This document shows, in pieces, positions 6,290 to 43,923 of a DNA stretch of 64,000 nucleotides; positions within the stretch are counted from its first letter, which is position 1, and each line of letters begins with the position of its first letter. Source of the stretch: a virus (taxonomy: Duplodnaviria > Heunggongvirae > Uroviricota > Caudoviricetes); IMG/VR virus record IMGVR_UViG_3300042456_000759; one strand, given 5' to 3'. A program made the position numbers and the translations under genes. Under the pieces are notes generated by a model. That model did no database searches and was not told where the DNA came from. It worked only from the letters and a program-made list of their open reading frames with translations.

Positions 6290-9200
6290 CGAACAATTAA
6301 AACCTACAACAATACCTGGATCATTCAATCCTCAACAAACATTAACAGATGTTTATGTACCAAGTACATTTGAAGATAGATTTGGTGCATTATTAAATAA
6401 CCCTATGCCAAGTAATTTAGGGTTACGAATTCCTATTGATGATTTCAAAACAGAATATGCTGATGGTTCTAAATTTAGAGGATTGTTTCAAAAATCAGGT
6501 GATAAACTAAAACAAGATCCTAATTTTGATCCTATTACTTCGAGAGTAATAACGACACCATTATCTGAAGTAGAACCTTATTTAAAATATGATTCTAATT
6601 ATGATAATAATCTTAATGCTGCTTTTGGCCAAGCTGGTAAAGGTGCTGTTGTTGGAGGTGGAGTAGGTTCGTTTTTCAGTCCAATTGGAACTGCTATAGG
6701 TGCTGGAGTTGGAGGTACGTTAGGATTTTTTTCAGGATTATTAACAACATCAGGAAGAGGAGTATATATTCCAGGAAGGGATAATAGACAAGAAATATTA
6801 GAAAAACAATCAGGTTTTTGGAATACGTTAGGAGGATTTACAAATAACTTTTTAGATAGAAGTTTTGAAGCAGGAATAGGAGGTACAGCTGCATTATTAA
6901 CTTCTCCTTTTGGAGCTATTGCAGGTAGAGAGTTTTACGATTGGGGATCTAACCCATTAACTAGGAAATTAAGTGAATCTTTAGAACAAAGTGAATATAA
7001 ACGTCATTTATCAGATAATTATTTAAATAAAGGACCTATTGCTAAATTTTTTACAGCAGAAGGGTTTCAAAATGAAATAGCTGATATGGCTGGATTTACT
7101 GTAGGAATGATGTTAGGAGCTAAGATAAACATGGGTTTAAACGCAGGTGCTGGACAAGCAGTATCAAAATTAGCTATTGGATTAAAAAATCCAGGTTTAG
7201 CCACTTCTATATCTAATCGAGGAGGAAATTTAATTGGAGATTTTTTACCTACTGTGGCTAAAAGAGCGTCAGCTTTATTTACTAAAGGAAGTACTAAATT
7301 AACAGCAGCTCAACAAGCTGCTACATTTTCAGAATTAAACTTAGTAACATTAGCTAAAAACGCTTTTAAAAAGGGAACATTTGAAGATTATGGTAAAAAT
7401 CTAATTAATGCTTTTAAAAATCCTGCATTTGGTTTAAAAGCTTTATCTAGTTTTGAAAGAACTGCATTGGCTTCATATGGAGAAGGTAGAGTTGAAGCAG
7501 CTCAAGCTTATAAAGACATTTATGACACAGCTTTAAAAAACGGTTATTCTGCTTCAGAATCTGCTGAAATGGCAACTAAAGGAGCTAATAAAACATTATT
7601 GGGTAATTTAGCAATATTAGGTGTTACAAATCAGTTTGGCTTAAATCAATTAACTAATGTATCTAGTATTAAAAATTTAAGTAGATGGTTTTCTAAGGAT
7701 TTTACATTAGATGTAACTACATCTAAAATATTAAAAGAAACATTAAAAGATATTTCAAAGAACGCTACAAAAGGATTTGTTATCGAAGGATTTGGTGAAG
7801 AATTAGGTCAGTTTGCTATATCTCAAGCTGCTAAAAATCAGCAATTAAATATGGCTGATCCTTTAAATCCTATTCATAAAGCTTTCTTTACAGAATTTAT
7901 TGAAGCTTATAAAGATGGTATTTCTTCTGATGAAGGGATGTCTAATTGGTTTGGAGGTGGTTTATTTGGATCAGTTATGGGTGGTTTTGGTCCAGGTGGA
8001 ATAATGTCAACATTAAATGAAGCAAATAAAGCCAAAACTATAAATATTCCTGATAGTTTAAAAACTAAAATTTCTAATTTCAGTTCAGCTATTGATTTTA
8101 TTTCAAAACATACAGTTCCATTTAACGGTCAATTATTTCAATCTTATAGAGAAGAAAACGGTGAATACATCCCAGATAATAATGGAACAGTTAGACTTAT
8201 TAATGATCCTACTCGGTTAATTAAATTAACACAAGCTTTAAATCATATTAATACATTATCTAAAGATCAAGCTAATCTTATTTTAACAAATGTTAAAAAT
8301 AATATTAAAACAGAAGATCCTGCTATGCAGGAAGGTTTTAAAATAATCAAAGATTATGTAGATTTATTTGGAGAAACAGGAGAAAAATCTTTAGAAGAAT
8401 ATATAAATCAAGATTTATCATCTAAAGAAAAGCAAAATACTTTATATTTATTATCTAAATTAGGGGAAACAGTCATTGAAAATGAATATGCTTTAGAATC
8501 AGATTTAAGTAATATAGCTAAATCAATGGTTTCTTCTTCTTATGTATTTGATCATGTAGTCAATGGCATTGAAGATAAGATCTTTGATGAATTAGATGCG
8601 TTAGAGGAATCATTATTAGATCCTACATCTGAGTCAGGACAAAAAGATTTAATAGAATTCTTTGGTAAAAATTATAAACTTGATCAATTAGATCAAGCCA
8701 AAGAAGATATTAAAACATTTAGAGATCAACTTAAAAAACAAGTTAAAATATTTAAAGGTTTAGCAAATAGATATTCTGAACCATTTACTCATATTAATAT
8801 TAAAAAAGATAATAAAGTTCATAAACTGCCTATTACAGTAGATATGTATAGCGTCTTTAGATCAGCTTTAGTTCAAGATGATTTAAATACTATGGTTTCT
8901 GAAATTGATGAAAAGTTAAATGATATTAAATCTGAATTATTAGCAGATCCACAATATTCACAAGATTATTTAAATCCTAATAATACATCAGAAGATGTAT
9001 TAGATATAGCTAAAAAAGAAAACAATAATCCTTTATATCTTCAATATCAAGTATTAGAAAATCTTAAAAAGCAAGTAAGTGATTCTTTACAAAAAGAAAA
9101 TAAAGCATTTGAAGAATTAACAGACGTTAAAAAATTAATTGAAAAAGCTCAAAAGTCAGAAAAAGCTATAAATTCAGAAATTGAAAATCCTGCTAAGTCA

Positions 9201-12200
9201 GAAGATCTTCCAAAACCTAAACCAGTTACTGTTACTGAAAGTTCTCAAGAACCAGAAGATAATCCTGAAGAGAAAGTAGAACCTGTTGTTTCTACAGATG
9301 CTAAAGCTGATATAGAAAGAATAAGACAAGAGAATGACTCTTTAGGTAAATCTATTTTACAAAAATTAGGATATAAAAATGAAAATAGATTACCTAATGG
9401 TAATGTTAAAGGAGGGCAATCAGGTTGGAAAATAAGATTTAATATTAAATCTCCTACTGGTGGAAATTATTTTAATACTGGAAATAAAACTCTTGAAAAC
9501 GATAAACATTATAATGAGCAAGCACAAAAACTTGTTGATTGGTTAAATAGTTATTTTGGAACAAAGAGTAAAGGGAGTGTATCAGAAGCTATTAAAGGAT
9601 ATACCCTTTTTGGTTTTACTGATGAACATCCATCTAGCATATGGAAGTTTCTTTCAGGTGGTGAGCAGGGGGAATCTGATTTTACTATTTATATAGGAAG
9701 TGCTGATGATGTTTTGAAATTTGTAGAAGATGTTAAAAAGTCACCTATAGCTGATTTATTAGTTGCTGGTAATCAAGGCTCTGACGTTAATATTACACCA
9801 GATGGTATTTTTAAAGCAAGAATTGAAGGTTCAAAGATAGGATTTAGTGGTTATGGAGCACCAATAGATTTAAATGTAGTTACGGGAGAAGAAAATTTTA
9901 CTTTTGTTTTTGATGGGAGAAGAGTAAACATAAATTATGGTAAAACTAAAGGACCTAGTGATATTTCAATTACAGTAGAGGGAGGAAATTCAGAAGGAAT
10001 AAATTGGAATTATAAAGTAGTAGGAGATGATAACTTAAAGAAAGATTTTCCTGAACTTTATAAAAATATTAGAAATATAATAGGTTTTCAATTATATGGA
10101 GATTATTTACAAGGTAGTAATAACGAGTTTTTAAAATTAACAGGTGTAGATAAAATCAATGCTAAATATGATGCAGAACTAAAAGAATTAGAACAAAAAC
10201 CTATATCTACTACTCAATCTGAAATAGCAAGTAAAACACAAGATGAATTTGCTCAATATTTACAAGATAATCATTCAGATAGATTAAGTCAAGAGCAGAT
10301 TTATAAGTTACTTACTGTTAGACCAGAATTAAGAGAGAAAATGCTTAATGATAGTCCTGAAGAGTGGGCTAAAATATTTGAAAAGAATCAAGATTATAGA
10401 CAGCAAGCTAATAATGTTGATAATAATAAAGAAATGAGAGGAAATGCTAATCCTGCTTGGACAGGTATTAGTATTGGTGAAACTGCAAATCAAGAACAAG
10501 ATGGCAGACATAAAGGGTACGTAACATTAGATGTAAATTCAGCAAGGGAAATGGGTAAAAATCTTGAACAAACATTTAAGGATTTATACCAACTACTGAA
10601 AGATGCAGGATATAACGGGCATTTGAAGATGCCCGGAGTGTATAGTGATTTGCTTACAAGATTTGATAATATAGTAATACACGGTGCGACAAAAGGAGAT
10701 GTAAGTTTAGCATTGCCTATTATTGAACAATATTTTAAAGATAAGGGGCTAAATGTAGAAGGCACTAAAACAGGGATTGATGCTAAAGATTCAAATGGGA
10801 AGGAAACAAGTCATACTAATTTATTAGCTGAGAAGGTTAAAAATAAATCATTAGAGAAACCTATATCTACTACTCAATCTGATATAGAAAGTAAAACAAA
10901 AGAAGAATTATTTCCTATAGATTCTTTACATAAAGGAAAAGAGTCTGGTGACATCCTTAAAGTTATTGGTTATATTAAAGATGGTGTTAGATTTGAAATC
11001 CAAACCAAAGGAACTCTTAAACCTAAAAAAAATTTAATTATTTCTGAATTAAAGAGATTAATAATAGAAGGCAAACTAGCTGCTTTAGAACAACCTACAA
11101 ATGGAGATCCTGCATCAGGGGGAAAATCAGCTCAAAGACCACCTATACAAGGTCCTGTTGAATATGGTGATCCTGATAATGATAATAGTTCTTTAGAGGA
11201 AGAAGATTATAGAGCTGATGCTTCTAGGACTCCTTTAAGTCAAACTACTATATTTAAGACATATGGGGCTGATTTTAGAAATGGGAAAATCCAATTAAAT
11301 AATATAGCTAAATCATATTTTTATGATCAAATTCTAGATTTAAAAAAAGATCATTTCTTTTTACCTATTCCAGTTAGTTCTGAATTAGCATTATCAATTG
11401 TAAAAGATAAAGAAGGAGATTTTTATAAGGATTATAAAGCTAATCCTACTGATTTAATTTATTTACTTGTTGGGATAGACAATGACAATAATCCTATTGT
11501 ATATAATCTTCCTACTGGAAAAACTATTCCTGAACAAATACCATTAATAGATATTTTATCTAATAAAACTATTCCTACAGGATTAATTTATGATAAATCA
11601 TCTACTTTCCCTATTGATAGAATTACTGAAAAATTTTCTAGAACTGAAAAATATTCTACACAAGACATTGATAAAATATATAATAATTATATTTTAGGAT
11701 TAAATCAGATGGCTATAGATTCTCTATCTTTAGTAGAAGAATATAATAAAGACGTTATAAATGTAAATAAATTAAGAATTGCTGTTCAGAATAATTTAAA
11801 ACCTATTATTGGTATAACTCCAGGGGTTCAGGATGGTCGTGTATCTAAAGTAAAATATGAAAAATTATCAGAAGATTATAGTATTCATATTCCAACTTTA
11901 GAAACTGCTATTGAGACTAAATATCATGAATTAAAGTTAGGAACTGTTTATGCTTATCAAAATGGGAAATACACTAAGACTTTAAGAAGGAAGTTTAATA
12001 AAAACGAAGCTCAAGTTTTAGCTAATTTAATTAAAAAAAGTTTATCAGGAGAGATTCTTGAAACTTCTGAAGAATTATATTTAAAAAGTGTATTAAATTG
12101 GTTTGATAATTTAACAACACCAACAGCATATAATAAAAATTCTGTTGGAATAGTAAATGGTCAATTTATAGCTGCTCCTTATTTTGGAAATAATAATAAT

Positions 12201-15200: not shown

Positions 15201-18200
15201 TCATTTAATGATAAATATTTACTAAAATCTTTAGATTTAAATCCTTCTTTCTTTTCTAAAGACTATAATTCAAGTTCTTCTTTAAATACAGAAGCTGTTA
15301 AAATCATAGAAAATTATTTCTTACCTCAACTTAAAGATGAGATTGACTTACTGTTTTCAAAAGATGCTTTAAACGTTCAATTTTTAAAAGATAAAATAAA
15401 AAATAAAGAACTTGGTTATTATCAAGATATTGTAAACTTTTCAAAAGAAGATTTTGAAAAGATTGCAAATGATTATAATTCAACTCAATCAGGATTATAT
15501 TCTTATTTACAATCTGCTATACCTTCTATCTATGTATATTTAAGAAATCAAATTGAAAATGATTATCAGAATTTATATAAAGCAGGATTCTTTAAGAATA
15601 TTGATGGTAGAGTATTAATATCTCGACAAATATTAAATTCTAAAGAAATTGAATTTATGAACCAGGGTTTAAACGCATATTTAGATTTTAAAGGTATAAA
15701 AGGAAAAGAACGAGAAAAGTATATTCAAAGAATTACTGGTAAAAATCAAAATACTAGTATAGCTAGTGGAAGATTAGCTAGTTTTTTCTTTAAAAAGATT
15801 GATGAAATATATATGATCTATGCTCAAGCTGGATATAAAGATATTACAGCATCTAATTTAGAACATATATTTAGAAAAATAGCTATTCAAGTTACTGTAA
15901 ATTACGAGATATATAATAAAGACATACAAGGATTTTTATATGGACCATTTAGTGCTTATAAAAAAGGAGATTTTGGTAAACGAGCAGGTTTCTTAGCTAG
16001 TTCTAAGCAAAGTCAAGATAATTCAATTACAATTAATAATCATTTAAATTTAACATCTAAAAGATTAGATGGAAAAAACAGAGATGGTTTATTATCTTTT
16101 GTCTCTTATAAAGATCCTATTGTCGTATCAGCAAGAATAACTTCTATTGCTGAAGATTTCTATAAAGTATTAAAAAATGATAAACATAGTCATGATACTA
16201 TTGAAAGACTTGTAGGAGCTAAATTTAAGAAAGATGGAACATTAAAAGAAATCACAGCTGAACCAGGTACATTATTAGCTCCTTATGAAGAATTAAAACT
16301 AGCAGATGCTCAAGCTTATATAATGTTAGATACATTTTATGATTTATTATATAAATCAGGAAAATTAACTAGATCTCAAAAAGTACATATTCAATATGAA
16401 ATGGCTTTAGAAAGAATAGAAAGATCTGAATTACCAAAAACTGATCCTGCTTATAGACCTTTAACAACAAAGCAAAAAGTTAAAGATTTAGAATTTATAA
16501 ACAATCCTCAAATTAAAAAAGAGGCTAATTCTGCTGTATTACAAGTTTTAAAACCTCAAGGATCTGGTTTTAATCAAAATAATTTAGATGTAGCTATTCC
16601 TATATTTTTAAAAAACTCAGTAGTTCCATTATCTTGGTCTCGTGTTAAAAATAATCCTATTTTACGAGATAAGTATATTACTTGGCAAAAAAATCAAATT
16701 GATTTAATTGGTTTTGAATCTGGTCAAAAAATAGGAGCTATTTTAAAAGATGGTAATTCTACTCCATTATATAATATTGATGGATTTAATGCTGAAATTC
16801 CTTTTATTCAAAAAATGAAATTTAATGATTTTGGTATTCAACAAGAAACTCCAAATGAATTTAAGAATTCTGTAAATAGAGGAGTACAAATTACTAAACT
16901 TATTGTAGGTAATTTATCTCATCATTTTAAAAATAAACCACATATTAAAGAATTAGTAGATGAATATTATGCAAACTTAAATGAACTTTATCAAAGAGGT
17001 TATGATAGTTTAATGAAGAAATTAGGTTTAAAATTAGAAGGAAATTATTACGTAACAGATAATTTATCAAATCTAGTAGAAACTTTATCTGAACAAGCAA
17101 AATTATTAAAATTACCAATTAATGTTAAAGACATGTTTGTTGTAGATAGTTCTACTGGGAAATTACCTTATAAATTTGATGCTTCTACAGAACGTCATAG
17201 AATAGAATATATATTGAATTCTATTTTAGATAGAACATTAATTCATCAAAAAGTTAAAGGAACTCAAGCTCCTCAGATATCTTCTGTATTTGAACAGTCT
17301 AATTTAAAACCATTATTTAAACGTAAAGGTATTTGGACTGAATATACTCAAGGAATGAAATTATCCGCAGATGAAGAAAAATCTATAAGATATTCATCTA
17401 CAGATTTAAAAATATTAGAAGATGGAACAATTGAAGTAAAAATACCTTCATATTTAAAAGGTTTAGTAAATCTCAATACTTCTAAAATAGATCCAGAATT
17501 ATTAGAATTAATAGGATATCGTATTCCTACTCAGTCATTCGGACAAGTAGAAAAAATTAAAATTGTAGGATTTTTAGATCAATCTTATGGTGATGCTATT
17601 ATTGTTCCAGCTGAATTAGTCGGTAAATCTGGATCGGATTTTGATATAGATAAATTAAATTTATATTTCCCACATTATTATAAGGATAAGCAAGGAAACT
17701 ATAGATATATTTCGTATTCTACATCTGATGAAGAATTAGGTTTACGATATAATAATTATATTAAATCAAATGAAGAGAAAGTTTATAGAAAATTAAAACA
17801 ATGGATATTTGATGCTATTAAAGACATGGCTTCAGATTTAAATATTAATTTAAATAAAGAAGATTTATCTAAGTTTTTTACTAAAAAAACATTTAGACAA
17901 TTACCTAATATTATCAAAGAAGAGTATTTTGATTTACAAGAAACTCTTCAAAATAGTGAAAGTAAAATATTAGAAAAAACAATAGCTCATATTCAAAAAA
18001 CTTCAGAATTAATTTCTGAATATGAAGAAGCTTTAGCTAATAAAGAAGAAATTGAATATGAAGATAAAGATGGAAATATAGTTATATCACCATTTGATGT
18101 ATTACCTTTATTATATACATTACAAACTGAATATGATACTTTATTAAATGCAGCTGGTTATAATCAAGATCAGATTGAGTTAATTCGTGAAAAATTAAAA

Positions 18201-26325: not shown

Positions 26326-29300
26326 ATGAAGTGTATAAATAAAAGTCATCCTAATTTTTTAAAATTAGAAAAACGTTTAGGTAAATTAGGTGCAGAATTA
26401 GCGGTAAGACATTATTCTAGAGTTAAATCTAGAACAGGAGATTTTATATATCCTGAAGTTAAAGATTTAAATGCTTTTTATTCTTCATTTAAATCAGTAC
26501 AAGAAAGATTGATTTCTTCATTAGTAAGTTTAGATCCAAATATATCTAAAGGAGTTTTAATGCATGCTTTAACTGGAATTGTAACTGGTCCTCGAGAAAA
26601 GATTAAAGCTGATCATATTGTAATGGGTTTTAATGATAATAATCAATTAAAAAACCAGAATCTTGAAATCTTTCAAAGATTATCTAATTCATTTCCAGAT
26701 ATTTTTCAATTTAAAGAAGGAGGAATTAATTCACAACATGTTTATATAAGAGAAGGTAAATATAATCCTAACATATCTTTAGAAGAAATATCTAGTTATT
26801 TAACATTTGATAATTCTATTTCTGATTTTATAGGATCTTTAAAATCCATAAATAAAGCAAATCCTCGTTTTGAAGCAGCTTTAGAAGTTTTATTATATAA
26901 ATTAGAGTCTAAATTTAATATTTCTTGGAAATTTGATTATAGAACTCCCAAAAAAGGATATATTAAAGATGGGGTAGTTTATATTAATCCTAATTATGCA
27001 ACAGCTGATACAGCTATTCATGAATATTTACATCCATTTATAGAATTAGTAAGACTAAATAATAGTACTTTATACACTTTATTAAGTAATAAAGCTAAAA
27101 CACTTGAATATAACGGATCTAAATTAATAGATCAAATTAAATTATCTTATCCTGAATATTCTGAACAAGCTTTAATTTATGAAACAATTGTAACTGCCGC
27201 AGGTTTAATATCTACAGGAGAATTAACTGAACCAGTAGTTCAATCTTATTCTCTCTTTGATTTAATTGATAGAGTTGTTTCATTTTTTATGAAACTATTT
27301 GGAAAAATAAAAGACTTTGAAGTAAATCTATCTACTCCATTAACTACATTATTAAATGGATTTTTAAATGATGATTTTTCTGTTAATTTGAAAGACTATG
27401 CTTTTGCAGCTGATCAACGTTTATCTCCTACAGAAGTTAATAAAGTATTAGATGATATAAATGATAATATTGAAGTAACCTTTGTAAAAGGTGAATTAGA
27501 TATAGATGAGCCAAAACGTAAATATATTGATAAACGTAGTCAGCAAATATTTAAATCTGTGCATGAAGCTATTATAGATGTCTTTTATAAACAAACTTTT
27601 AAAAAAACATTTTCTCCAACAGAAAAAAGTGAATATTTAAAGAATGTAGGAACTGTTTTTCATAATTATATAGAACAATTATTATCTGATAAATTTACTA
27701 TTGTAGATAAAGATGGTTATTTGAATGAAAATTTAAAGAAATTAAGTTCAGAAGAAAGAAGTGAAGCAATTCAAGACATGTTAATGAGTTTAGTAAATGA
27801 TTTTGCTATTACTTCTCCAGAAGATGAAAATAAAATATTATTAGATTCTGATGCAGCTAATATATTAAAAACAGTTGTTGCTGAGTTTTTACCAGGAATG
27901 ATTGAATTTTACATTCAAAGACATGGAATAGATGTTCAATTTAGAACTGAACAAAAAGTAATTAATCCTGAAACAGGAATAGCTGGTACTATAGATTTAT
28001 TAGTTTTAGGTAATGGAAGTTTTTCTATTGTAGATTGGAAGACTTTATCTGCTAGTAGATATGATAAGTATAATACTACCTTTAGAGAAATTGAAATATT
28101 ATCAGATAAAAAAGAAACAGCTTATGCTTTACAGTTATCAGAGTATGCTAAAATGGTTAAACGATTAACTGGATTAGAATTTATTGATGGTAGAGCTATA
28201 CCTGTAGGTCTTTTTGTAGGTAAAAAGAGTGAATTCAACATATTTACAGGAGAATATGATAAATCTGATGATTATACATTAAATTCTTTTAATCCTGATA
28301 GAGATCCTATTACAATTCAACCTTTTGGATCCACTGAAATTAAACAAGAAGGGGAAGTTCCTCAACGTTACTTACTACCAATTATTGTATCTGATGAGAA
28401 TGAAGATCATATTAATACATTAATTAATAAGCTTGAATCATTATTACAGAACTATATTAAACAACAAGAAGAATCTAGAGAAGATAGAGAATTCTTAAAA
28501 TCTTTAAGATTTAGAGAAATTAGAAAGATTATTCAGGATTTAAAAGTCAGAAAAAGTGCTGATGCTGCTAAAAGACGTATTAACATGTTAATATCGGAAG
28601 CAGAAAAAGAGTTAACTAAAAAAACTGAAGACATTAATCTAAAGAAAATACAAGATTTAATTTATGAATTAAATGTATATAGTAACTTATCTACTTATTT
28701 TCCTTTAGAAGATCAAGATAACACAGAAGATAAAAATGCTTTAGCTTTATTAGAAAGAAAGATATTTTTAAGTGTAAAAAGTTTAAAAAATCTTAGAAAT
28801 CAGATATTATCTGAACAAGCTCAAGGTTTTGGTATATATAATTTAACAAGTAATGAAAAAGCATATACAGGTGCTAAAAGGCATTTTAGAGAGTTTTCTG
28901 CTATATCAGATGTAAAAACAATAGCTTTTTTAAATGCAAAACAAACATTATTATTTAATAAAGCTAATATTGAGAAATTAAAACATTTTAAGAATCTTAA
29001 TGAGTTTTCTAAATTATCCCAATCAGATTTTAATTATTTCTTTCAAAAGAACAGACAAGGAAAAAGAATTCCAAAGTTAATAGCTAAAATTGATAAAGGT
29101 AAAATATTAGCTGAAGCTAATGGATTTGAAACTTTAGATGAGTTATATGCTTTTGAAGATGATAATTTTATTAGAAATGATGAAGCTTATCAAAAAGCTA
29201 AAAACGCATATCGAGATTTTTTAATGTCTACATTAGATTTTATAGATGTAGAATTAGAAGAAGAAACCGAGGAGGAATATTATCATAATCAAGCATTACG

Positions 29301-31686
29301 AGATAAATTAAATCAATTGCTAGATGTTTGGGAGCTTGAAAATAACAAAGCTTTTATTGAAAGAGAAGGTGTAATAACAAATATTAATTGGAGATTTTTT
29401 AATTTAACTGAAGAAGCCGAAAGTAAGTTTCATACTAAAGATTATATTAAATTAAAAGAATCTGAAGACAGAGTCAATTTATATAATACTCTTATAGATA
29501 TAAATACTAAAGCATTTGAAGAAGGTTTAATCCCTAATAAATTTACTTTCTATCCATCAGCTTATGCTACAATAACTGAAAAAGTACAGGATAAGAACTT
29601 TTCAGATATATCTCTTCAGAATTATTATAGAAAACTAAAAGAGAATATTAATGATGAAGATAGTTTGGCTGAGACTATTATAAATCCTATTACAGGTGAA
29701 GAAGAGTTAGTTATTCCTAAATTATTCCAACAAGATATATCTAATATTAAAGAAAAAGATTTATTTTCTAAAATAATTAGCTTAGATGATGAAGATTTTG
29801 CAGTTAGACTGGAAGAATATGGATTAAGAAAAACGTTAGAAACTTTTGATTTTACTATTGATGAGATAAATAAAGTTTTAAATTTAGGATTTGATCCAAA
29901 ATCAAAAGTCATTGATAAATATGATATTATTAATGAATTAAAAGATTATAGCAATCAATCATTTAATTTATTAAAAGTATATTCATTATTTTCTTCTCAT
30001 TTAGAAGAATTTAAAGCCAAACAATCCTTAGAAGAATTATCTAGAATTTTAATTGAAATTGAAAAAGATAAAGAAAATCTTCAAGTTAATAAAGATGGAA
30101 ATATAGTATATAGTACAAATATTTCTGGTGAAAAGATTCCTCAAGTTATTAAAGGACATAATGAAAATACTGAATTATTAAGACGTTTTATTAATTATTC
30201 AGTATATGGTAAATCAGGATTTTCAGAATTAGCAAAGTTTGCAGGTAACACTATCTTAAATACTAATATCTCTACAGTTAAAACTGTTAAAAAGTTAATG
30301 GCTTGGAGAAGTATGACTACATTAGGTTTTAATATTTTGTCAGCTAGTTCAGCTTTATTTGGAGGTATGTCCAATCTTTTATTAGAAGCCAATAGAAATG
30401 GATATTTTACAAAGTCAGATATAGCTTCTTCCAAAGTAAGTTTAGCAAACTCACTATTAAACGATACAGCAAAGGAAAGAATGAGATTATTAGATTCAAT
30501 TGACTCTTTTATTGAAGATTCAGATAGAATTAGAGGTAATAAACTTTCAAAAGTAACGTTTGAGAAACATTTTACTCAGGAAAAGTTATATTTCATGTTA
30601 AGAAATGTAGATAAATACATTCAAAATGTAATAGGTTTATCTACTTTGAATAATTTTATTCTTAGAAATAATGAATTATATAATATTAGAGATTTAGCTA
30701 AAGAAGAATTAAATTATGAGGCTCAGTTTAATAATATGATGAGTCTTAAAGAATTTGAAAATGTTAGTAAATTAGATATAGAACTAGAAAATAAAATAAA
30801 AGAATTACAAAAAGAATCCTTATTTAACAATCCTTCTGTTGAATTATCAGAAGATCATATTATTAAATTAAGACCTTTGATTCAAAAATTAACTACAAAA
30901 GTCATAGGTAATGCTTCACATGAGGATAAAAATGCGTTTGGATTAAGTGCATTAGGTGTAATATCTATGCAATTTAAAAATTGGATGCCTAGATTAGTTA
31001 CAGAAAGATTTGGTGATCCTGAAATAGATAATGTAACTAAACGATTAAATTGGGGAAAATATATGACGTTTAAAGATTTAATAGGAAAGGATTTTTTACA
31101 ATTAACAAAAGCAGCATTTTCTCAAATGAATGAAGTTTCTTATGAAAAAATCCTAACAAAATATAATAACTTAAAAGAACAACATTTATTAAATGGAGGA
31201 TCAGAAAATAACTTTATTTCTTTTTCAGATTTTACTCATGTATATATAAATAATATTAGATCTACTTTTAAAGAATTATTAATTATAACTAGTTTACTGA
31301 TAGCTATGTTATCCATAGGAATGGCCTGGGATGATGATGAACCTAAGTCTGGTTATCAAAGATTAGTATTAAATATGTTAGGTAAATTTAAAAATGAGTT
31401 AACCTTCTATATAAATCCTGTTTCTTTTACAGATTTAGTAAATAAACCTTTCCCAGTAGTTCAGACATTAGTAGATGGAATGAGATTTGGAGAACATATG
31501 ACTCGATATAGCTTTAATCAAGTTCAAAATATTTTCACGAATGATGAACAAGAAGATTTAGAAAAAACCCACCCTTTTAAATATTTTAGTAAATTATTTC
31601 CAATTTCTAAAGAAATGATGAATTGGATGGCTATTATAGATGAAGATTTTAGAAAAAAACATAATATAACTTTAAGATATAATTAA
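26326..31686 (+). CDS. Polyvalent virion cargo protein (1786 aa) with zincin and PD-(D/E)XK (RecB/Cas4-like) nuclease domains
   Basis: HEYLH at 27019-27033; GTVFHNYIE...TEQ...GTIDLL...IVDWKT...QLSEY nuclease motifs at about 27650-28150. Helical C-terminal region with a hydrophobic segment (LLIITSLLIAMLSIGMAW). Confidence 0.7.
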   Translation: MKCINKSHPNFLKLEKRLGKLGAELAVRHYSRVKSRTGDFIYPEVKDLNAFYSSFKSVQERLISSLVSLDPNISKGVLMHALTGIVTGPREKIKADHIVMGFNDNNQLKNQNLEIFQRLSNSFPDIFQFKEGGINSQHVYIREGKYNPNISLEEISSYLTFDNSISDFIGSLKSINKANPRFEAALEVLLYKLESKFNISWKFDYRTPKKGYIKDGVVYINPNYATADTAIHEYLHPFIELVRLNNSTLYTLLSNKAKTLEYNGSKLIDQIKLSYPEYSEQALIYETIVTAAGLISTGELTEPVVQSYSLFDLIDRVVSFFMKLFGKIKDFEVNLSTPLTTLLNGFLNDDFSVNLKDYAFAADQRLSPTEVNKVLDDINDNIEVTFVKGELDIDEPKRKYIDKRSQQIFKSVHEAIIDVFYKQTFKKTFSPTEKSEYLKNVGTVFHNYIEQLLSDKFTIVDKDGYLNENLKKLSSEERSEAIQDMLMSLVNDFAITSPEDENKILLDSDAANILKTVVAEFLPGMIEFYIQRHGIDVQFRTEQKVINPETGIAGTIDLLVLGNGSFSIVDWKTLSASRYDKYNTTFREIEILSDKKETAYALQLSEYAKMVKRLTGLEFIDGRAIPVGLFVGKKSEFNIFTGEYDKSDDYTLNSFNPDRDPITIQPFGSTEIKQEGEVPQRYLLPIIVSDENEDHINTLINKLESLLQNYIKQQEESREDREFLKSLRFREIRKIIQDLKVRKSADAAKRRINMLISEAEKELTKKTEDINLKKIQDLIYELNVYSNLSTYFPLEDQDNTEDKNALALLERKIFLSVKSLKNLRNQILSEQAQGFGIYNLTSNEKAYTGAKRHFREFSAISDVKTIAFLNAKQTLLFNKANIEKLKHFKNLNEFSKLSQSDFNYFFQKNRQGKRIPKLIAKIDKGKILAEANGFETLDELYAFEDDNFIRNDEAYQKAKNAYRDFLMSTLDFIDVELEEETEEEYYHNQALRDKLNQLLDVWELENNKAFIEREGVITNINWRFFNLTEEAESKFHTKDYIKLKESEDRVNLYNTLIDINTKAFEEGLIPNKFTFYPSAYATITEKVQDKNFSDISLQNYYRKLKENINDEDSLAETIINPITGEEELVIPKLFQQDISNIKEKDLFSKIISLDDEDFAVRLEEYGLRKTLETFDFTIDEINKVLNLGFDPKSKVIDKYDIINELKDYSNQSFNLLKVYSLFSSHLEEFKAKQSLEELSRILIEIEKDKENLQVNKDGNIVYSTNISGEKIPQVIKGHNENTELLRRFINYSVYGKSGFSELAKFAGNTILNTNISTVKTVKKLMAWRSMTTLGFNILSASSALFGGMSNLLLEANRNGYFTKSDIASSKVSLANSLLNDTAKERMRLLDSIDSFIEDSDRIRGNKLSKVTFEKHFTQEKLYFMLRNVDKYIQNVIGLSTLNNFILRNNELYNIRDLAKEELNYEAQFNNMMSLKEFENVSKLDIELENKIKELQKESLFNNPSVELSEDHIIKLRPLIQKLTTKVIGNASHEDKNAFGLSALGVISMQFKNWMPRLVTERFGDPEIDNVTKRLNWGKYMTFKDLIGKDFLQLTKAAFSQMNEVSYEKILTKYNNLKEQHLLNGGSENNFISFSDFTHVYINNIRSTFKELLIITSLLIAMLSIGMAWDDDEPKSGYQRLVLNMLGKFKNELTFYINPVSFTDLVNKPFPVVQTLVDGMRFGEHMTRYSFNQVQNIFTNDEQEDLEKTHPFKYFSKLFPISKEMMNWMAIIDEDFRKKHNITLRYN

Positions 31687-38152: not shown

Positions 38153-39175
38153 TTATTGCACATCAGGTTCTTCAACTATTTCTTCACTATTATTTAGTTT
38201 ATTTTCTACTAATGGTTGTAAAACAGTAGATACATAATCTGGATTATTTTTTAAATATTCTACTACTTTTTTCTTTCCTGTTATACTTTCTTCAATATTA
38301 GGTAATGTATATTTCTTTCCAGAAATATTTATAATACCAAATTCTAATGCTAAATCACCACATTCACTAGCAGAATCAAATCCTTCTTTCCAATCATATA
38401 ATGTAACTCCAATTTTAAATGGAACACTCATTTTATTTTTAACAAAGTTGAATTTAATTTTATTTTTTCCTAACTCTCTATCAATTTCACTTCTTGTAAC
38501 CCATACTCGTACATGAGAATAAAAAGGAATAGCTGTACCACCACTAACTGTAATCGGATTACCAAATCCACCAATACTTTGTCTACTTTGTCGTAATAAC
38601 AATAAACATGTATTAGATTTAGGCATAAGATTATTAATTAATCTCATTTTATCAGAGTTTACACGAGCTTCTACACCCATTACAGCTGAATCTTCAAATT
38701 TAGATTGTGGAGCAAAAGATGTGACTGAATCTACTACTATAACACCAAATTTATTAGATTCAATAGCTTTTCTTAAAACATCATACATATCTTCTAATGA
38801 TTCAATTTTAGAAGACTTATTATTCATAACAATAAGTTTTTCATTATCTATTCCCATTGCTGCTCCATAATTAGGAGAGTAAGAATCTTCTTTATCAATT
38901 AATAAAGCCCATTCTCCAAATTTCTTCTGACAATTACCAATTAAATCATATCCTAATGTACTTTTACCAGCAGAAGGATCTGCATAAATATCATATATTT
39001 TTTTCTTTGCTACTCCTCCAATACCACTAGCATAATTAAAAGAAAAAGAAGATGAAGGAATGATATCTCCATAAGGTTCTTTATCTATACCTAATAAGAC
39101 AGTTCCTTTTCCAAAAAGTTTCTCTAATTCTTCAATCATGCTTTCTGCTTGTGCTGAATATTTCTCTTTACTCAT
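38153..39175 (-). CDS. recA: RecA-family recombinase
   Basis: P-loop ADPSAGKST, Walker B VIVVDSVT, GGTAIPFYSHVRV and VKNKMSVPF RecA motifs. Confidence 0.9.
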   Translation of the reverse strand: MSKEKYSAQAESMIEELEKLFGKGTVLLGIDKEPYGDIIPSSSFSFNYASGIGGVAKKKIYDIYADPSAGKSTLGYDLIGNCQKKFGEWALLIDKEDSYSPNYGAAMGIDNEKLIVMNNKSSKIESLEDMYDVLRKAIESNKFGVIVVDSVTSFAPQSKFEDSAVMGVEARVNSDKMRLINNLMPKSNTCLLLLRQSRQSIGGFGNPITVSGGTAIPFYSHVRVWVTRSEIDRELGKNKIKFNFVKNKMSVPFKIGVTLYDWKEGFDSASECGDLALEFGIINISGKKYTLPNIEESITGKKKVVEYLKNNPDYVSTVLQPLVENKLNNSEEIVEEPDVQ

Positions 39176-42517: not shown

Positions 42518-42871
42518 ATTAATTTGAGGACTATATAATATTTCTATTCTAGAAGGTTTTTTTCCTGTTTTATGTGTGTATTTTACTATTTCAGTATTTT
42601 CATCTGTGATTATATATATTTTTTTATAATATCTAGATTTACACCATCTAAAAAAGTCACTTGCATCAGTTCCTTTAAAGTTAAAGGCTTCATAATGAAC
42701 AGTTTCTCCTTCTTTTATCTTATTATATAATTCTTTAGCTTTTTTTTTATTAAATTGATCTTTTTTTGAACATGGAATTATAGTAATTGCCATGTTATCA
42801 TTGATCACTTCACCAAAAATAGCTAATCTTTGATTACTTTTATTAAAATATTTATATGTTACGTATGTCAT
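42500..42871 (-). CDS. Hypothetical protein (123 aa)
   Basis: ORF with ATGA overlap to the upstream gene. Confidence 0.55.
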   Translation of the reverse strand: MTYVTYKYFNKSNQRLAIFGEVINDNMAITIIPCSKKDQFNKKKAKELYNKIKEGETVHYEAFNFKGTDASDFFRWCKSRYYKKIYIITDENTEIVKYTHKTGKKPSRIEILYSPQINKEKVS

Positions 42872-43923
42872 AATTTTATATTTAAATATCCATTATTTTC
42901 ATGTAAAGAAATGTGATCATAAAATCCATTTTTCTTACAATATTCTATTTCTTTAATTAATTGTTTTACTCCTTTATAATCAGTATAACTATCTGAAAAA
43001 CCATTTAAACCTTTATCTATTATATCTTTACTACATATATAAAAATGTGGTAAATAAGTCAATGAACTATCACAAATTAAGAACATAAATCTATCATCAA
43101 CTGTATAATCAGTTAAATTATTATCAATAATATATTGAGATAATAAACTATGATATAAACTAGCTTGTAAATAATATCCCATTTTCTTAAAATTAAAAGA
43201 GAAATTAGTCATTTGCCAGGTTGTTTTTAAATCAATACCTAACACAGTTTTAGATGTATGATCAATTTTAATAATATCAATTAAACCTTTAACTTCTACT
43301 CCATCTATAATAGATACGATTGCAGTTTGATATTTTAATTCTATAGTTCTAGAAGGTATAAATAAATTATTAGTATATTTTCCATGAATTATATTATTAA
43401 CAATTTTTTCTGCTTTATCATATGTTCTTTGATCTATTGTAACTTTACCATATTCTTTAATAAGGTTGATATAATATAATTGTGGAGAGTTTCCATTTTT
43501 ATCTTCTATTTTAAAGTTTTCTACAAGATAATTAAAATCTTTTCCTTTGAATTTATTTGGATTTTTTTGTTTAAATACATCCCAGGTAAATTCTAATCTT
43601 TCTTTCATAGAAATTGTAATAGTTCCATCTTGATCAATATATCTTTGAGTTATTGCCCATAATTCATCAATGAATTCACCTAATTGTCCTATTGGTTTTT
43701 CACAAACAGTTATACTAAACTTTTCATTAAATCTTTCTTTTTCTAACAAAAGACAATCTACAAGCATTCCGATTTTAACAGAATCACTTAAAGTTTCATC
43801 TTCTTTTTGTTTTAGAATGTATTTATTATAATAACTATAAGGGTTTTCTGCAAAAAGTTTCAACCCTGAATAATTATATGCTTCATATTTTCTATAATCT
43901 ACTTCACAACACTCAATGATCAT
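42868..43923 (-). CDS. PD-(D/E)XK exonuclease (RecE/ExoVIII-like)
   Basis: YNYSGLK, GMLVDCLLLE, KGLIDII, IDLKTT and YYLQASLY motifs. Confidence 0.8.
   Translation of the reverse strand: MIIECCEVDYRKYEAYNYSGLKLFAENPYSYYNKYILKQKEDETLSDSVKIGMLVDCLLLEKERFNEKFSITVCEKPIGQLGEFIDELWAITQRYIDQDGTITISMKERLEFTWDVFKQKNPNKFKGKDFNYLVENFKIEDKNGNSPQLYYINLIKEYGKVTIDQRTYDKAEKIVNNIIHGKYTNNLFIPSRTIELKYQTAIVSIIDGVEVKGLIDIIKIDHTSKTVLGIDLKTTWQMTNFSFNFKKMGYYLQASLYHSLLSQYIIDNNLTDYTVDDRFMFLICDSSLTYLPHFYICSKDIIDKGLNGFSDSYTDYKGVKQLIKEIEYCKKNGFYDHISLHENNGYLNIKL

Follow-up and report, generated by a model that had tools for sequence, protein, structure and literature searches.

The stretch of DNA analysed here (the window) comprises the 64,000 nucleotides (nt) of the IMG/VR virus record IMGVR_UViG_3300042456_000759, and its positions 9288–11099 lie within a giant gene, P0001, which is predicted to encode a crAss-type virion RNA polymerase polyprotein. 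This region is very probably a hypervariable, in-frame array of cassettes that are exchanged via the DNA shared by their junctions. The array is modular, occurs in alternative states whose breakpoints lie in the junctions, and is bordered by junctions that are conserved at the DNA level. An earlier note, made from the letters of the window, had proposed that related linkers serve as homology arms for the exchange of effector domains carried in with the injected polymerase. The domain-exchange reading of the linkers was supported overall, in that the segments are not fixed among the relatives and the linkers do flank other domains elsewhere.

Alternative cassette arrays at one locus

The three segments described in the earlier note, A, B and C, were located at 9288/9291–10196, 10197–10856 and 10857–11099, respectively, with the peptides quoted for them in place. 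Their borders coincide with the ends of homology to other proteins (query residues 1009–1306/1315 for A, 1306/1315–1526/1533 for B, and 1524–1602 for C). The linkers of B and C form the direct repeat that had been claimed: 10197–10250 and 10857–10910 are identical at 49 of 54 nt, contain a 26-nt exact run, lie 660 nt (220 codons) apart from start to start, and are both in codon phase 0. This 26-nt run is the sole exact direct repeat of at least 20 nt in the 14.5-kilobase (kb) gene. The spacers rich in proline and glutamate (P/E-rich) on the two sides of the array were also recovered, as was the position of the array away from the catalytic core, ~6.5 kb upstream of the DFDID motif. Among the closing helices that had been called related, that of B (KNKSLE) is a weak version. 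The segments are unrelated by sequence, as had been stated (hhalign probability of 0.2 for A versus B), but A might share the fold of B, to which its matches are weak (Z of 5.7).

Cassettes A, B and C are independent modules. When residues 995–1615 of P0001 were searched with HMMER against 1.84 billion representatives, almost all of the 107 matches were to one of A, B and C alone. Among 121 collected homologues, 75 contain only B, 35 only A, and 10 only C, and the single one with both A and C is the near-identical P0026. The proteins in which A, B or C is found singly, many of them giant (2.7–6 thousand amino acids (aa)), share the module at top identities of 77%, 89%, and 87%, respectively, and the rest of these proteins exhibits 24–29% identity in the polymerase core or no alignment.

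The order A-B-C is not fixed among the relatives of P0001, all of which are metagenome assemblies. The arrays differ on near-identical backbones, as seen in P0026, P0173, P0166, and P0174, and five array states were observed at one locus: A-B-C (the window), X-A-B'-C, Z-Y', Y-B'', and empty.

P0026 belongs to the same 90% cluster as P0001, is 99–100% identical to it over ~4600 aa, and differs from it only at the array, which is in the state X-A-B'-C. Its cassette X (101 aa) is inserted at the opener of A and flanked by an exact 13-aa duplicate of the linker, VVSTDAKADIERI, and B is swapped for an unrelated B' of ~190 aa between KPISTTQS and PISTTQSDIESK. These junctions were read from the protein and from contigs of the runs X9 and X20, and those of B' were seen in both runs.

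For P0173, encoded by L154, 5 mismatches in 3218 nt were observed upstream of the array (99.85% identity) and 32 in 9913 nt downstream (99.68%). Between these flanks, the window positions 9297–11073 are exchanged for 1213 nt that code for a different pair of cassettes, Z and Y', such that L154 departs from the window after VVST and rejoins it at LAALEQPT.

P0166 (L153) and P0174 (L152) are 75% relatives, of which L153 holds Y-B'' and L152 holds no cassette, and their downstream backbones are 99.92% identical to each other. In the filled allele of L153, a 1461-nt array (487 codons, in frame) lies between two direct repeats encoding EQQPTTSNQSE, which are perfect over ~33 nt, with 46 nt aligning on both sides. 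The empty allele of L152 contains a single copy of the repeat, whose left flank is that of the left copy and whose right flank is that of the right copy. The L152/L153 pair bears the classical mark of an array gained or lost through recombination at direct repeats.

The loose ends and branches of the contigs from four lake runs fall mostly at 9280–9345, 10145–10219, and 10858. These three zones make up ~5% of the part of the window to which the contigs were aligned and contain 14 of the 21 listed loose ends. The haplotypes recur: P0001 was found on six contigs from four sources, P0173 on two, and P0174 on two, one from the Joint Genome Institute (JGI) and one from Logan. Protein-guided scans of IMG/VR for the A-B-C array and for the P0026 array returned none, and an exact 35-mer of the opener of A was found nowhere in IMG/VR.

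One JGI contig, Ga0558126_00743 (158,573 base pairs (bp)), contains the same gene region at both ends (L001 and L153). One end holds the intact Y-B'' array of P0166, and the other is diverged, with several frameshifts and an 884-aa N-terminal open reading frame (ORF). This contig probably represents a circular genome whose overlapping ends derive from two strains, or else the differences are indel errors.

The junction and its conservation at the DNA level

The junction consists of a closer, INAKYDAELKALE, a spacer, QQPTSTTQS, and an opener, EIEAKKADIERRR. As a consensus, the closing helix reads INAKYDAELKALE and the opening helix EIEAKKADIERRRQEEL, with a spacer of Ser, Thr, Gln, and Pro between them. 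In the linkers of the earlier note, KPISTTQS is the spacer and (E/D)I(A/E)SK a shortened opener, and the KSLE of cassette B is a weak closer. In the AlphaFold2 (AF2) models, the opener and the closers are helical, and the predicted local distance difference test (pLDDT) values of the junction spacer are below 50 in the model of B, suggesting that the spacer is likely flexible.

Hidden Markov models (HMMs) of the opener and the closer, of the kind that the earlier note had proposed to build, detected 202 instances in 70 of the 172 collected proteins. The expectation that the linker flanks different domains elsewhere was borne out by 76 opener-to-closer brackets (54–331 aa) in 54 giant proteins, the 73 usable interiors of which fall into 51 sequence families. 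One bracket encloses the Pfam family ART-PolyVal (score of 50 bits; cut-off, 31 bits), and the polyvalent-protein families PBECR5 and ART-PolyVal are present in proteins with cassette B or the junction. At the lower end of the size range, mini-cassettes of 54–57 aa have next to nothing between the opener and closer helices. In a model of the pairing of these two helices, the two halves of a 57-aa mini-cassette scored 0.16, below the mark. P0126 contains two identical tandem cassettes of 103 aa (residues 992–1094 and 1101–1203), each with its own opener and closer, and this pair looks like the product of an unequal crossover between junctions.

The similarity of the junctions extends to the DNA. 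Between the window gene and the 12.7-kb gene of P0049 (L004), whose polymerase core is 25% identical, the nucleotide similarity consists of four linker matches only (90, 39, 39, and 29 nt long, with identities of 91%, 95%, 92%, and 93%, respectively), and the 90-nt match is the junction at the closer of A. At the sites with the same amino acid in the two junctions, both genes use the same codon in all 22 of 22 instances (12.2 expected; nominal P of 7.6e-07), and for the two linkers within the window they are identical in 13 of 13 (7.0 expected; nominal P of 1.6e-04). In contrast, 57–61% of such codons agree inside cassette B, which is about the background, at 87–89% amino acid identity. The idea that the linkers are homology arms, as judged at the DNA level, is thus backed by their synonymous-site identity across otherwise unrelated genes.

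The codons were also compared in 117 IMG/VR contigs that were picked solely for encoding INAKYDAEL, with any codons, the surrounding frames serving as the background. In these contigs, ATC is used for Ile in 65% (background 8%), GCA for the second Ala in 80% (34%), and CTA for Leu in 57% (11%). A 27-mer pattern of the closer, allowing C or T at three two-fold sites, occurs in 81 viral contigs.

The closer was compared between 10155–10181 of the window and 144 IMG/VR loci (L008–L151), and the rare codons ATC (Ile) and CTA (Leu) are kept in most copies. Besides serving recombination, these codons might indicate that translation pauses where domains meet, or act as a signal in the RNA.

Cassette folds and the phage that carries the array

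For cassette B, the AF2 model matched 4rsw, 9dk1/3, 3i0u, and 8cav with Foldseek probabilities of 0.97–1.0. The alignment by VIA-align to 4rsw_A gave a Z of 10.3 and a root-mean-square deviation of 3.9 with 185 residues aligned, and that to 9dk3_B a Z of 9.8 with 181 aligned, compared to at most 7.6 for unrelated rows. On these models, cassette B is predicted to share the phospho-Ser/Thr-lyase fold of HopA1, LxmY, class III lanthipeptide lyases, OspF, and SpvC. In an alignment of 40 B sequences, five columns (K, Y, K, D, and H) are invariant. The matches of cassette A to the HopA1-like fold were weak (best Z of 5.7, with 88 residues aligned to 4rsx; Foldseek E of at least 0.09), and no relation between A and B was found by profile comparison.

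The composition of the cassettes was compared with that of the rest of the gene, as the earlier note had proposed, and B stood out by a foreign GC content at third codon positions (GC3). Its value of 0.177 exceeds that of every other 660-nt segment of the gene (mean of 0.092, standard deviation of 0.022) and equals that of the genes containing its closest relatives (0.16–0.205). By this measure cassette B looks compositionally foreign and recently imported. It is 83.5% and 81.9% identical at the nucleotide level to the cassettes in L002 and L003, respectively, and those genes are otherwise dissimilar.

Pfam contains no family for A, B, C, X, B', Z, Y', or Y, and for cassette C neither Pfam nor the Atlas gave a lead, all the Atlas feature scores being below 0.9. 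Cassettes X and Y recur in unrelated proteins at 92% and 90% identity, respectively. Y and Y' share a Gly-rich core (e.g., VIINVNG...PFY...G...GKW.P.FG), which represents an uncharacterised family without a Pfam match and is seen in P0173 (~1250–1320), P0166 (~219–330), P0016, P0138, P0148, and P0011.

The source of the window is a distant crAss-like lake phage, and the runs that contain the stretch are lake-water metagenomes. Residues 3200–4400 of P0001 match PDB 6VR4, the virion RNA polymerase gp66 of phi14:2, a crAss-like Cellulophaga phage (E of 3.7e-21), in an alignment that covers the motif region. P0001 thereby has both the DFDxD motif and the similarity to the solved enzyme by which crAss-like virion RNA polymerases are recognized, and like gp66 it combines a DFDID motif with a significant match in the core sequence. 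The two proteins differ in size: the solved chain of gp66 contains 2194 residues, compared to 4835 in P0001, in which the array lies ~2200 residues upstream of the catalytic motif. The other genes of the window are phage-like and include those for a ribonucleotide reductase, a UvsX-like recombinase, an exonuclease VIII-like protein, and a helicase. The positions of the features are given in Table 1.

Table 1. Positions, strands, and supporting observations for the elements of the array and for other features of the window.
Feature	Position	Strand	Observation
Giant gene P0001	6279–20786	+	Single 14.5-kb open frame, 4835 aa; ORF list and translation
Upstream P/E-rich spacer	9201–9287	+	Backbone homology stops at 9271 versus L001 and at 9296 versus L154
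Opener of A (VSTDAKADIERIRQENDS)	9288–9341	+	Linker HMM independent E-value (i-E) 2e-06; AF2 helix at model residues 7–31
Cassette A core	9342–10145	+	Well-folded alpha/beta domain; AF2 pLDDT 86
Closer of A (VDKINAKYDAELKELEQ)	10146–10196	+	Linker HMM i-E 5.6e-10; contains the conserved 27-mer with rare codons ATC and CTA
Spacer and degenerate opener of B (KPISTTQSEIASK)	10197–10235	+	Left repeat copy; left border of the segment in which B' replaces B
Cassette B core	10236–10838	+	Predicted HopA1/LxmY/OspF-like phospho-Ser/Thr-lyase fold; AF2 pLDDT 90
Weak closer of B (KNKSLE)	10839–10856	+	
Spacer and opener of C (KPISTTQSDIESKTK)	10857–10901	+	Right repeat copy; right border of the segment in which B' replaces B
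Cassette C core, ~57 aa	10902–11072	+	Found alone in 10 other proteins, 67–87% identity
Closer of C (KLAALEQPT)	11073–11099	+	Backbone identity to L154 restarts at 11074
Downstream P/G/acidic spacer	11100–11213	+	
DFDID catalytic motif of virion RNA polymerase	17637–17651	+	P0001 residues 3787–3791
Ferritin-like gene, 162 aa	20780–21268	+	Pfam Ferritin, E 2.2e-22; overlaps the polymerase stop
UvsX-like recombinase gene	38153–39175	-	PHROG 97, E 2.9e-51; candidate enzyme for short-homology exchange
Exonuclease VIII (RecE)-like gene	42868–43923	-	PHROG 412, E 4.5e-22; candidate recombination partner

The ferritin-like gene lies between the polymerase gene and the next giant gene (1684 aa), and occupies the same place in L152, L153, and L154. 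At 26326–31686 (+), a 1786-aa protein is encoded that contains a nuclease-like region at residues ~440–620 (PHROG 298 exonuclease, E of 9.7e-09). The opener/closer junction is absent from the 1786-aa and 1684-aa proteins, and the linker HMMs detected no extra copy elsewhere in the window. No PHROG family was found for the 925-, 4835-, and 1684-aa proteins.

At ~6620–6780, P0001 contains a Gly-rich hydrophobic stretch (residues ~115–165) with a weak C19orf12-like Pfam match (E of 0.04, under the cut-off), which may be a glycine zipper by which the ejected protein inserts into a membrane. Another short exact direct repeat, of 20-mers 51 nt apart (749–770 and 800–821), lies within a 383-aa ORF (644–1795), and Tandem Repeats Finder reported no tandem array at 600–1000. 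In the GenBank phage collection, neither DNA nor protein matches to the array or the junction were found, and the nearest record, G001, is a 22-kb fragment without the array region.

Proposed exchange mechanism, alternatives, and related systems

In the proposed mechanism, each cassette is a self-contained domain bracketed by an opening and a closing helix, with neighbouring cassettes joined by a short spacer. The ~100-nt junction is near-identical in DNA, always in a single codon phase, among many phages that share these habitats, and its copies would offer ~30–100 nt of near-identical, phase-locked DNA on either side of every cassette. Recombination between these copies, in one genome or between co-infecting or resident genomes, would then insert, delete, duplicate, or replace domains, and, since the junctions are near-identical and phase-locked, the exchange of whole domains would keep the reading frame. 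Homologous recombination of the RecA/UvsX type is the probable route of this exchange, and the UvsX-like and RecE-like enzymes of the phage could carry it out. The arrangement of helix, flexible spacer, and helix probably shields neighbouring domains from mutual interference.

The cassettes are part of the same polypeptide as a polymerase whose homologue in phi14:2, a large protein, is described as packaged in the virion (bioRxiv 10.1101/2020.03.07.982082). By this analogy, they are most likely early-acting payload domains that are delivered with the DNA, and they would act there as effectors.

Several observations weigh against this interpretation of exchangeable effector cassettes. Pfam gave no family over threshold on P0001 and no recognised effector domain. 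The opener of B is a degenerate form to which the opener HMM assigns no score, and the closer of B is weak. The earlier note had pointed to a precise 660-bp loss of B, and no such joint was present among the assembled contigs of the four runs, a result that says little because assembled contigs drop rare variants. The P values of the codon comparisons are nominal, because the contigs were treated as independent though some are related, and codon identity is likelier by chance in AT-rich genomes with a strong codon bias, which was modelled from the whole-gene usage; the contrast with cassette B is a firmer point than the P values. In addition, the conserved synonymous sites could reflect selection on translation or on RNA, not on recombination.

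The alternative arrays might in principle be chimeric contigs, produced when assemblers jumped between phages at the linker repeats. Co-occurring phages do share linkers at 91–100% over 26–90 nt, which is apt to confuse de Bruijn assemblers. Such an artefact would nevertheless require two coordinated jumps for each haplotype, all of them in frame, and the exact repeats of 26–46 nt are shorter than the final assembly k-mers in usual use. The recurrence of the haplotypes on separate contigs and in separate sources, together with the B' junctions seen in two runs, makes chimeric assembly very unlikely. It is even harder to credit that the opener and the closer are no more than the terminal helices of the A domain family, without a general linker role: both helices are indeed present in seven A-family cassettes, but 50 further sequence families lie between these two helices, among them ART-PolyVal, C, and the mini-cassettes of 54–57 aa.

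A less remote but still improbable explanation invokes a constraint at the protein level only. The linkers would be needed as folding insulators or as protease or packaging signals, illegitimate recombination would occur anywhere, with the products broken at domain borders surviving, and the DNA identity would be a by-product. The amino acid motif is strongly conserved across 70 proteins, the spacer is predicted to be flexible between helical flanks, and proteolytic processing of polyvalent proteins has been proposed (Iyer et al., 2017; PMC5512222), all of which agree with such a constraint. However, the conservation of the synonymous sites of the junction far exceeds the expectation from codon usage, with complete codon identity in both comparisons as opposed to the background level in the adjacent cassette, the rare ATC and CTA codons prevail across the 117 contigs, and a single unit flanked by the repeat accounts for the whole difference between the filled and empty alleles. 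The constraint may hold alongside recombination at the junctions as a second function of the linker, and a protease or packaging-signal role could coexist with exchange.

Exchange at conserved borders has precedents. Tetart, Desplats, and Krisch reportedly described in 1998 the 'His boxes' of the T-even tail-fibre adhesins as conserved-motif crossover points, and Botstein's modular theory is said to have envisaged homologous linker sequences as crossover points at which functional segments are swapped. In those cases the exchanged units are host-recognition segments or whole genes, whereas here they are unrelated enzymatic domains, or domains without assigned function, in a probably injected polymerase protein, and one junction is common to at least 51 cassette families.

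In polymorphic toxins, such as Rhs and contact-dependent inhibition (CDI) proteins, a short motif (VENN, PxxxxDPxGL) borders the variable domain and supplies the homology for cassette replacement, and behind this C-terminal toxin domain lie a cognate immunity gene and orphan cassettes. The array resembles these toxins in having a border motif with DNA homology and breakpoints inside it, a likeness that indicates the workings and not membership. The units described here differ in that they form a series inside the protein, each has a bracket at either end, and any exchange must stay in frame, and their carrier, by homology, would be a phage virion protein and not a secreted bacterial toxin. The layout also departs from that of polymorphic toxins (Zhang et al., 2012, ref. 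10 in PMC5512222): the variable units share one uninterrupted frame of 4835 codons that no ORF separates, neither immunity genes nor orphan cassettes are present, and the next gene is ferritin-like.

The closest likeness in kind is to the polyvalent proteins (Iyer, Burroughs, Anand, de Souza, and Aravind, 2017; PMC5512222), each of which unites several domains of disparate activity in one polypeptide of a phage or conjugative element. They include giant phage polypeptides that combine a virion RNA polymerase with disparate domains and are predicted to enter the host with the DNA. In the single phage polypeptide P0001, the polymerase core is likewise combined with B, of predicted lyase fold, and the unrelated A and C. 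None of the signature domains of the polyvalent proteins (ART-PolyVal, PBECR, MPTase, and others) reached the Pfam threshold in P0001. Recombinational variability by analogy with polymorphic toxins was already raised in that work, in which the cassettes are separate small ORFs near the main locus, in contrast to the in-frame internal cassettes found here (PMC5512222). The word 'linker' has 0 occurrences in that paper, and HopA1, OspF, and lyases are not mentioned in it (PMC5512222). No description of the linker peptides, or of shuffling through linkers in polyvalent proteins, emerged from the literature searches. Neither Iyer et al. (2017) nor the other literature found describes the conserved junction, its conservation at the DNA level, or naturally occurring alleles that are filled, empty, or swapped.

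A broader reading is conceivable but, in our judgement, somewhat doubtful: the junction might be a community-wide exchange format selected at the DNA level, integron-like but within an ORF and without a dedicated integrase, through which unrelated uncultured phages would trade injected effectors and any wrapped domain would fit any carrier.

Searches with the junction pull uncharacterised candidate effector domains from metagenomes, and the junction suggests a natural in-frame docking format for adding domains to the virion proteins of laboratory phages. Polyvalent proteins are regarded as the phage's first strike on host defences, and the fast change of their domain sets has so far been without explanation. 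The locus offers a concrete and testable answer, in which one junction, with its silent sites kept, surrounds at least 51 kinds of domain. Near-identical strains gain, lose, and replace domains at this junction, and both the empty and the repeat-flanked filled sites have been caught in nature. It can now be tested whether the silent sites are conserved for recombination, how fast the payload turns over in a natural population, and which payloads correspond to which defences of the host.

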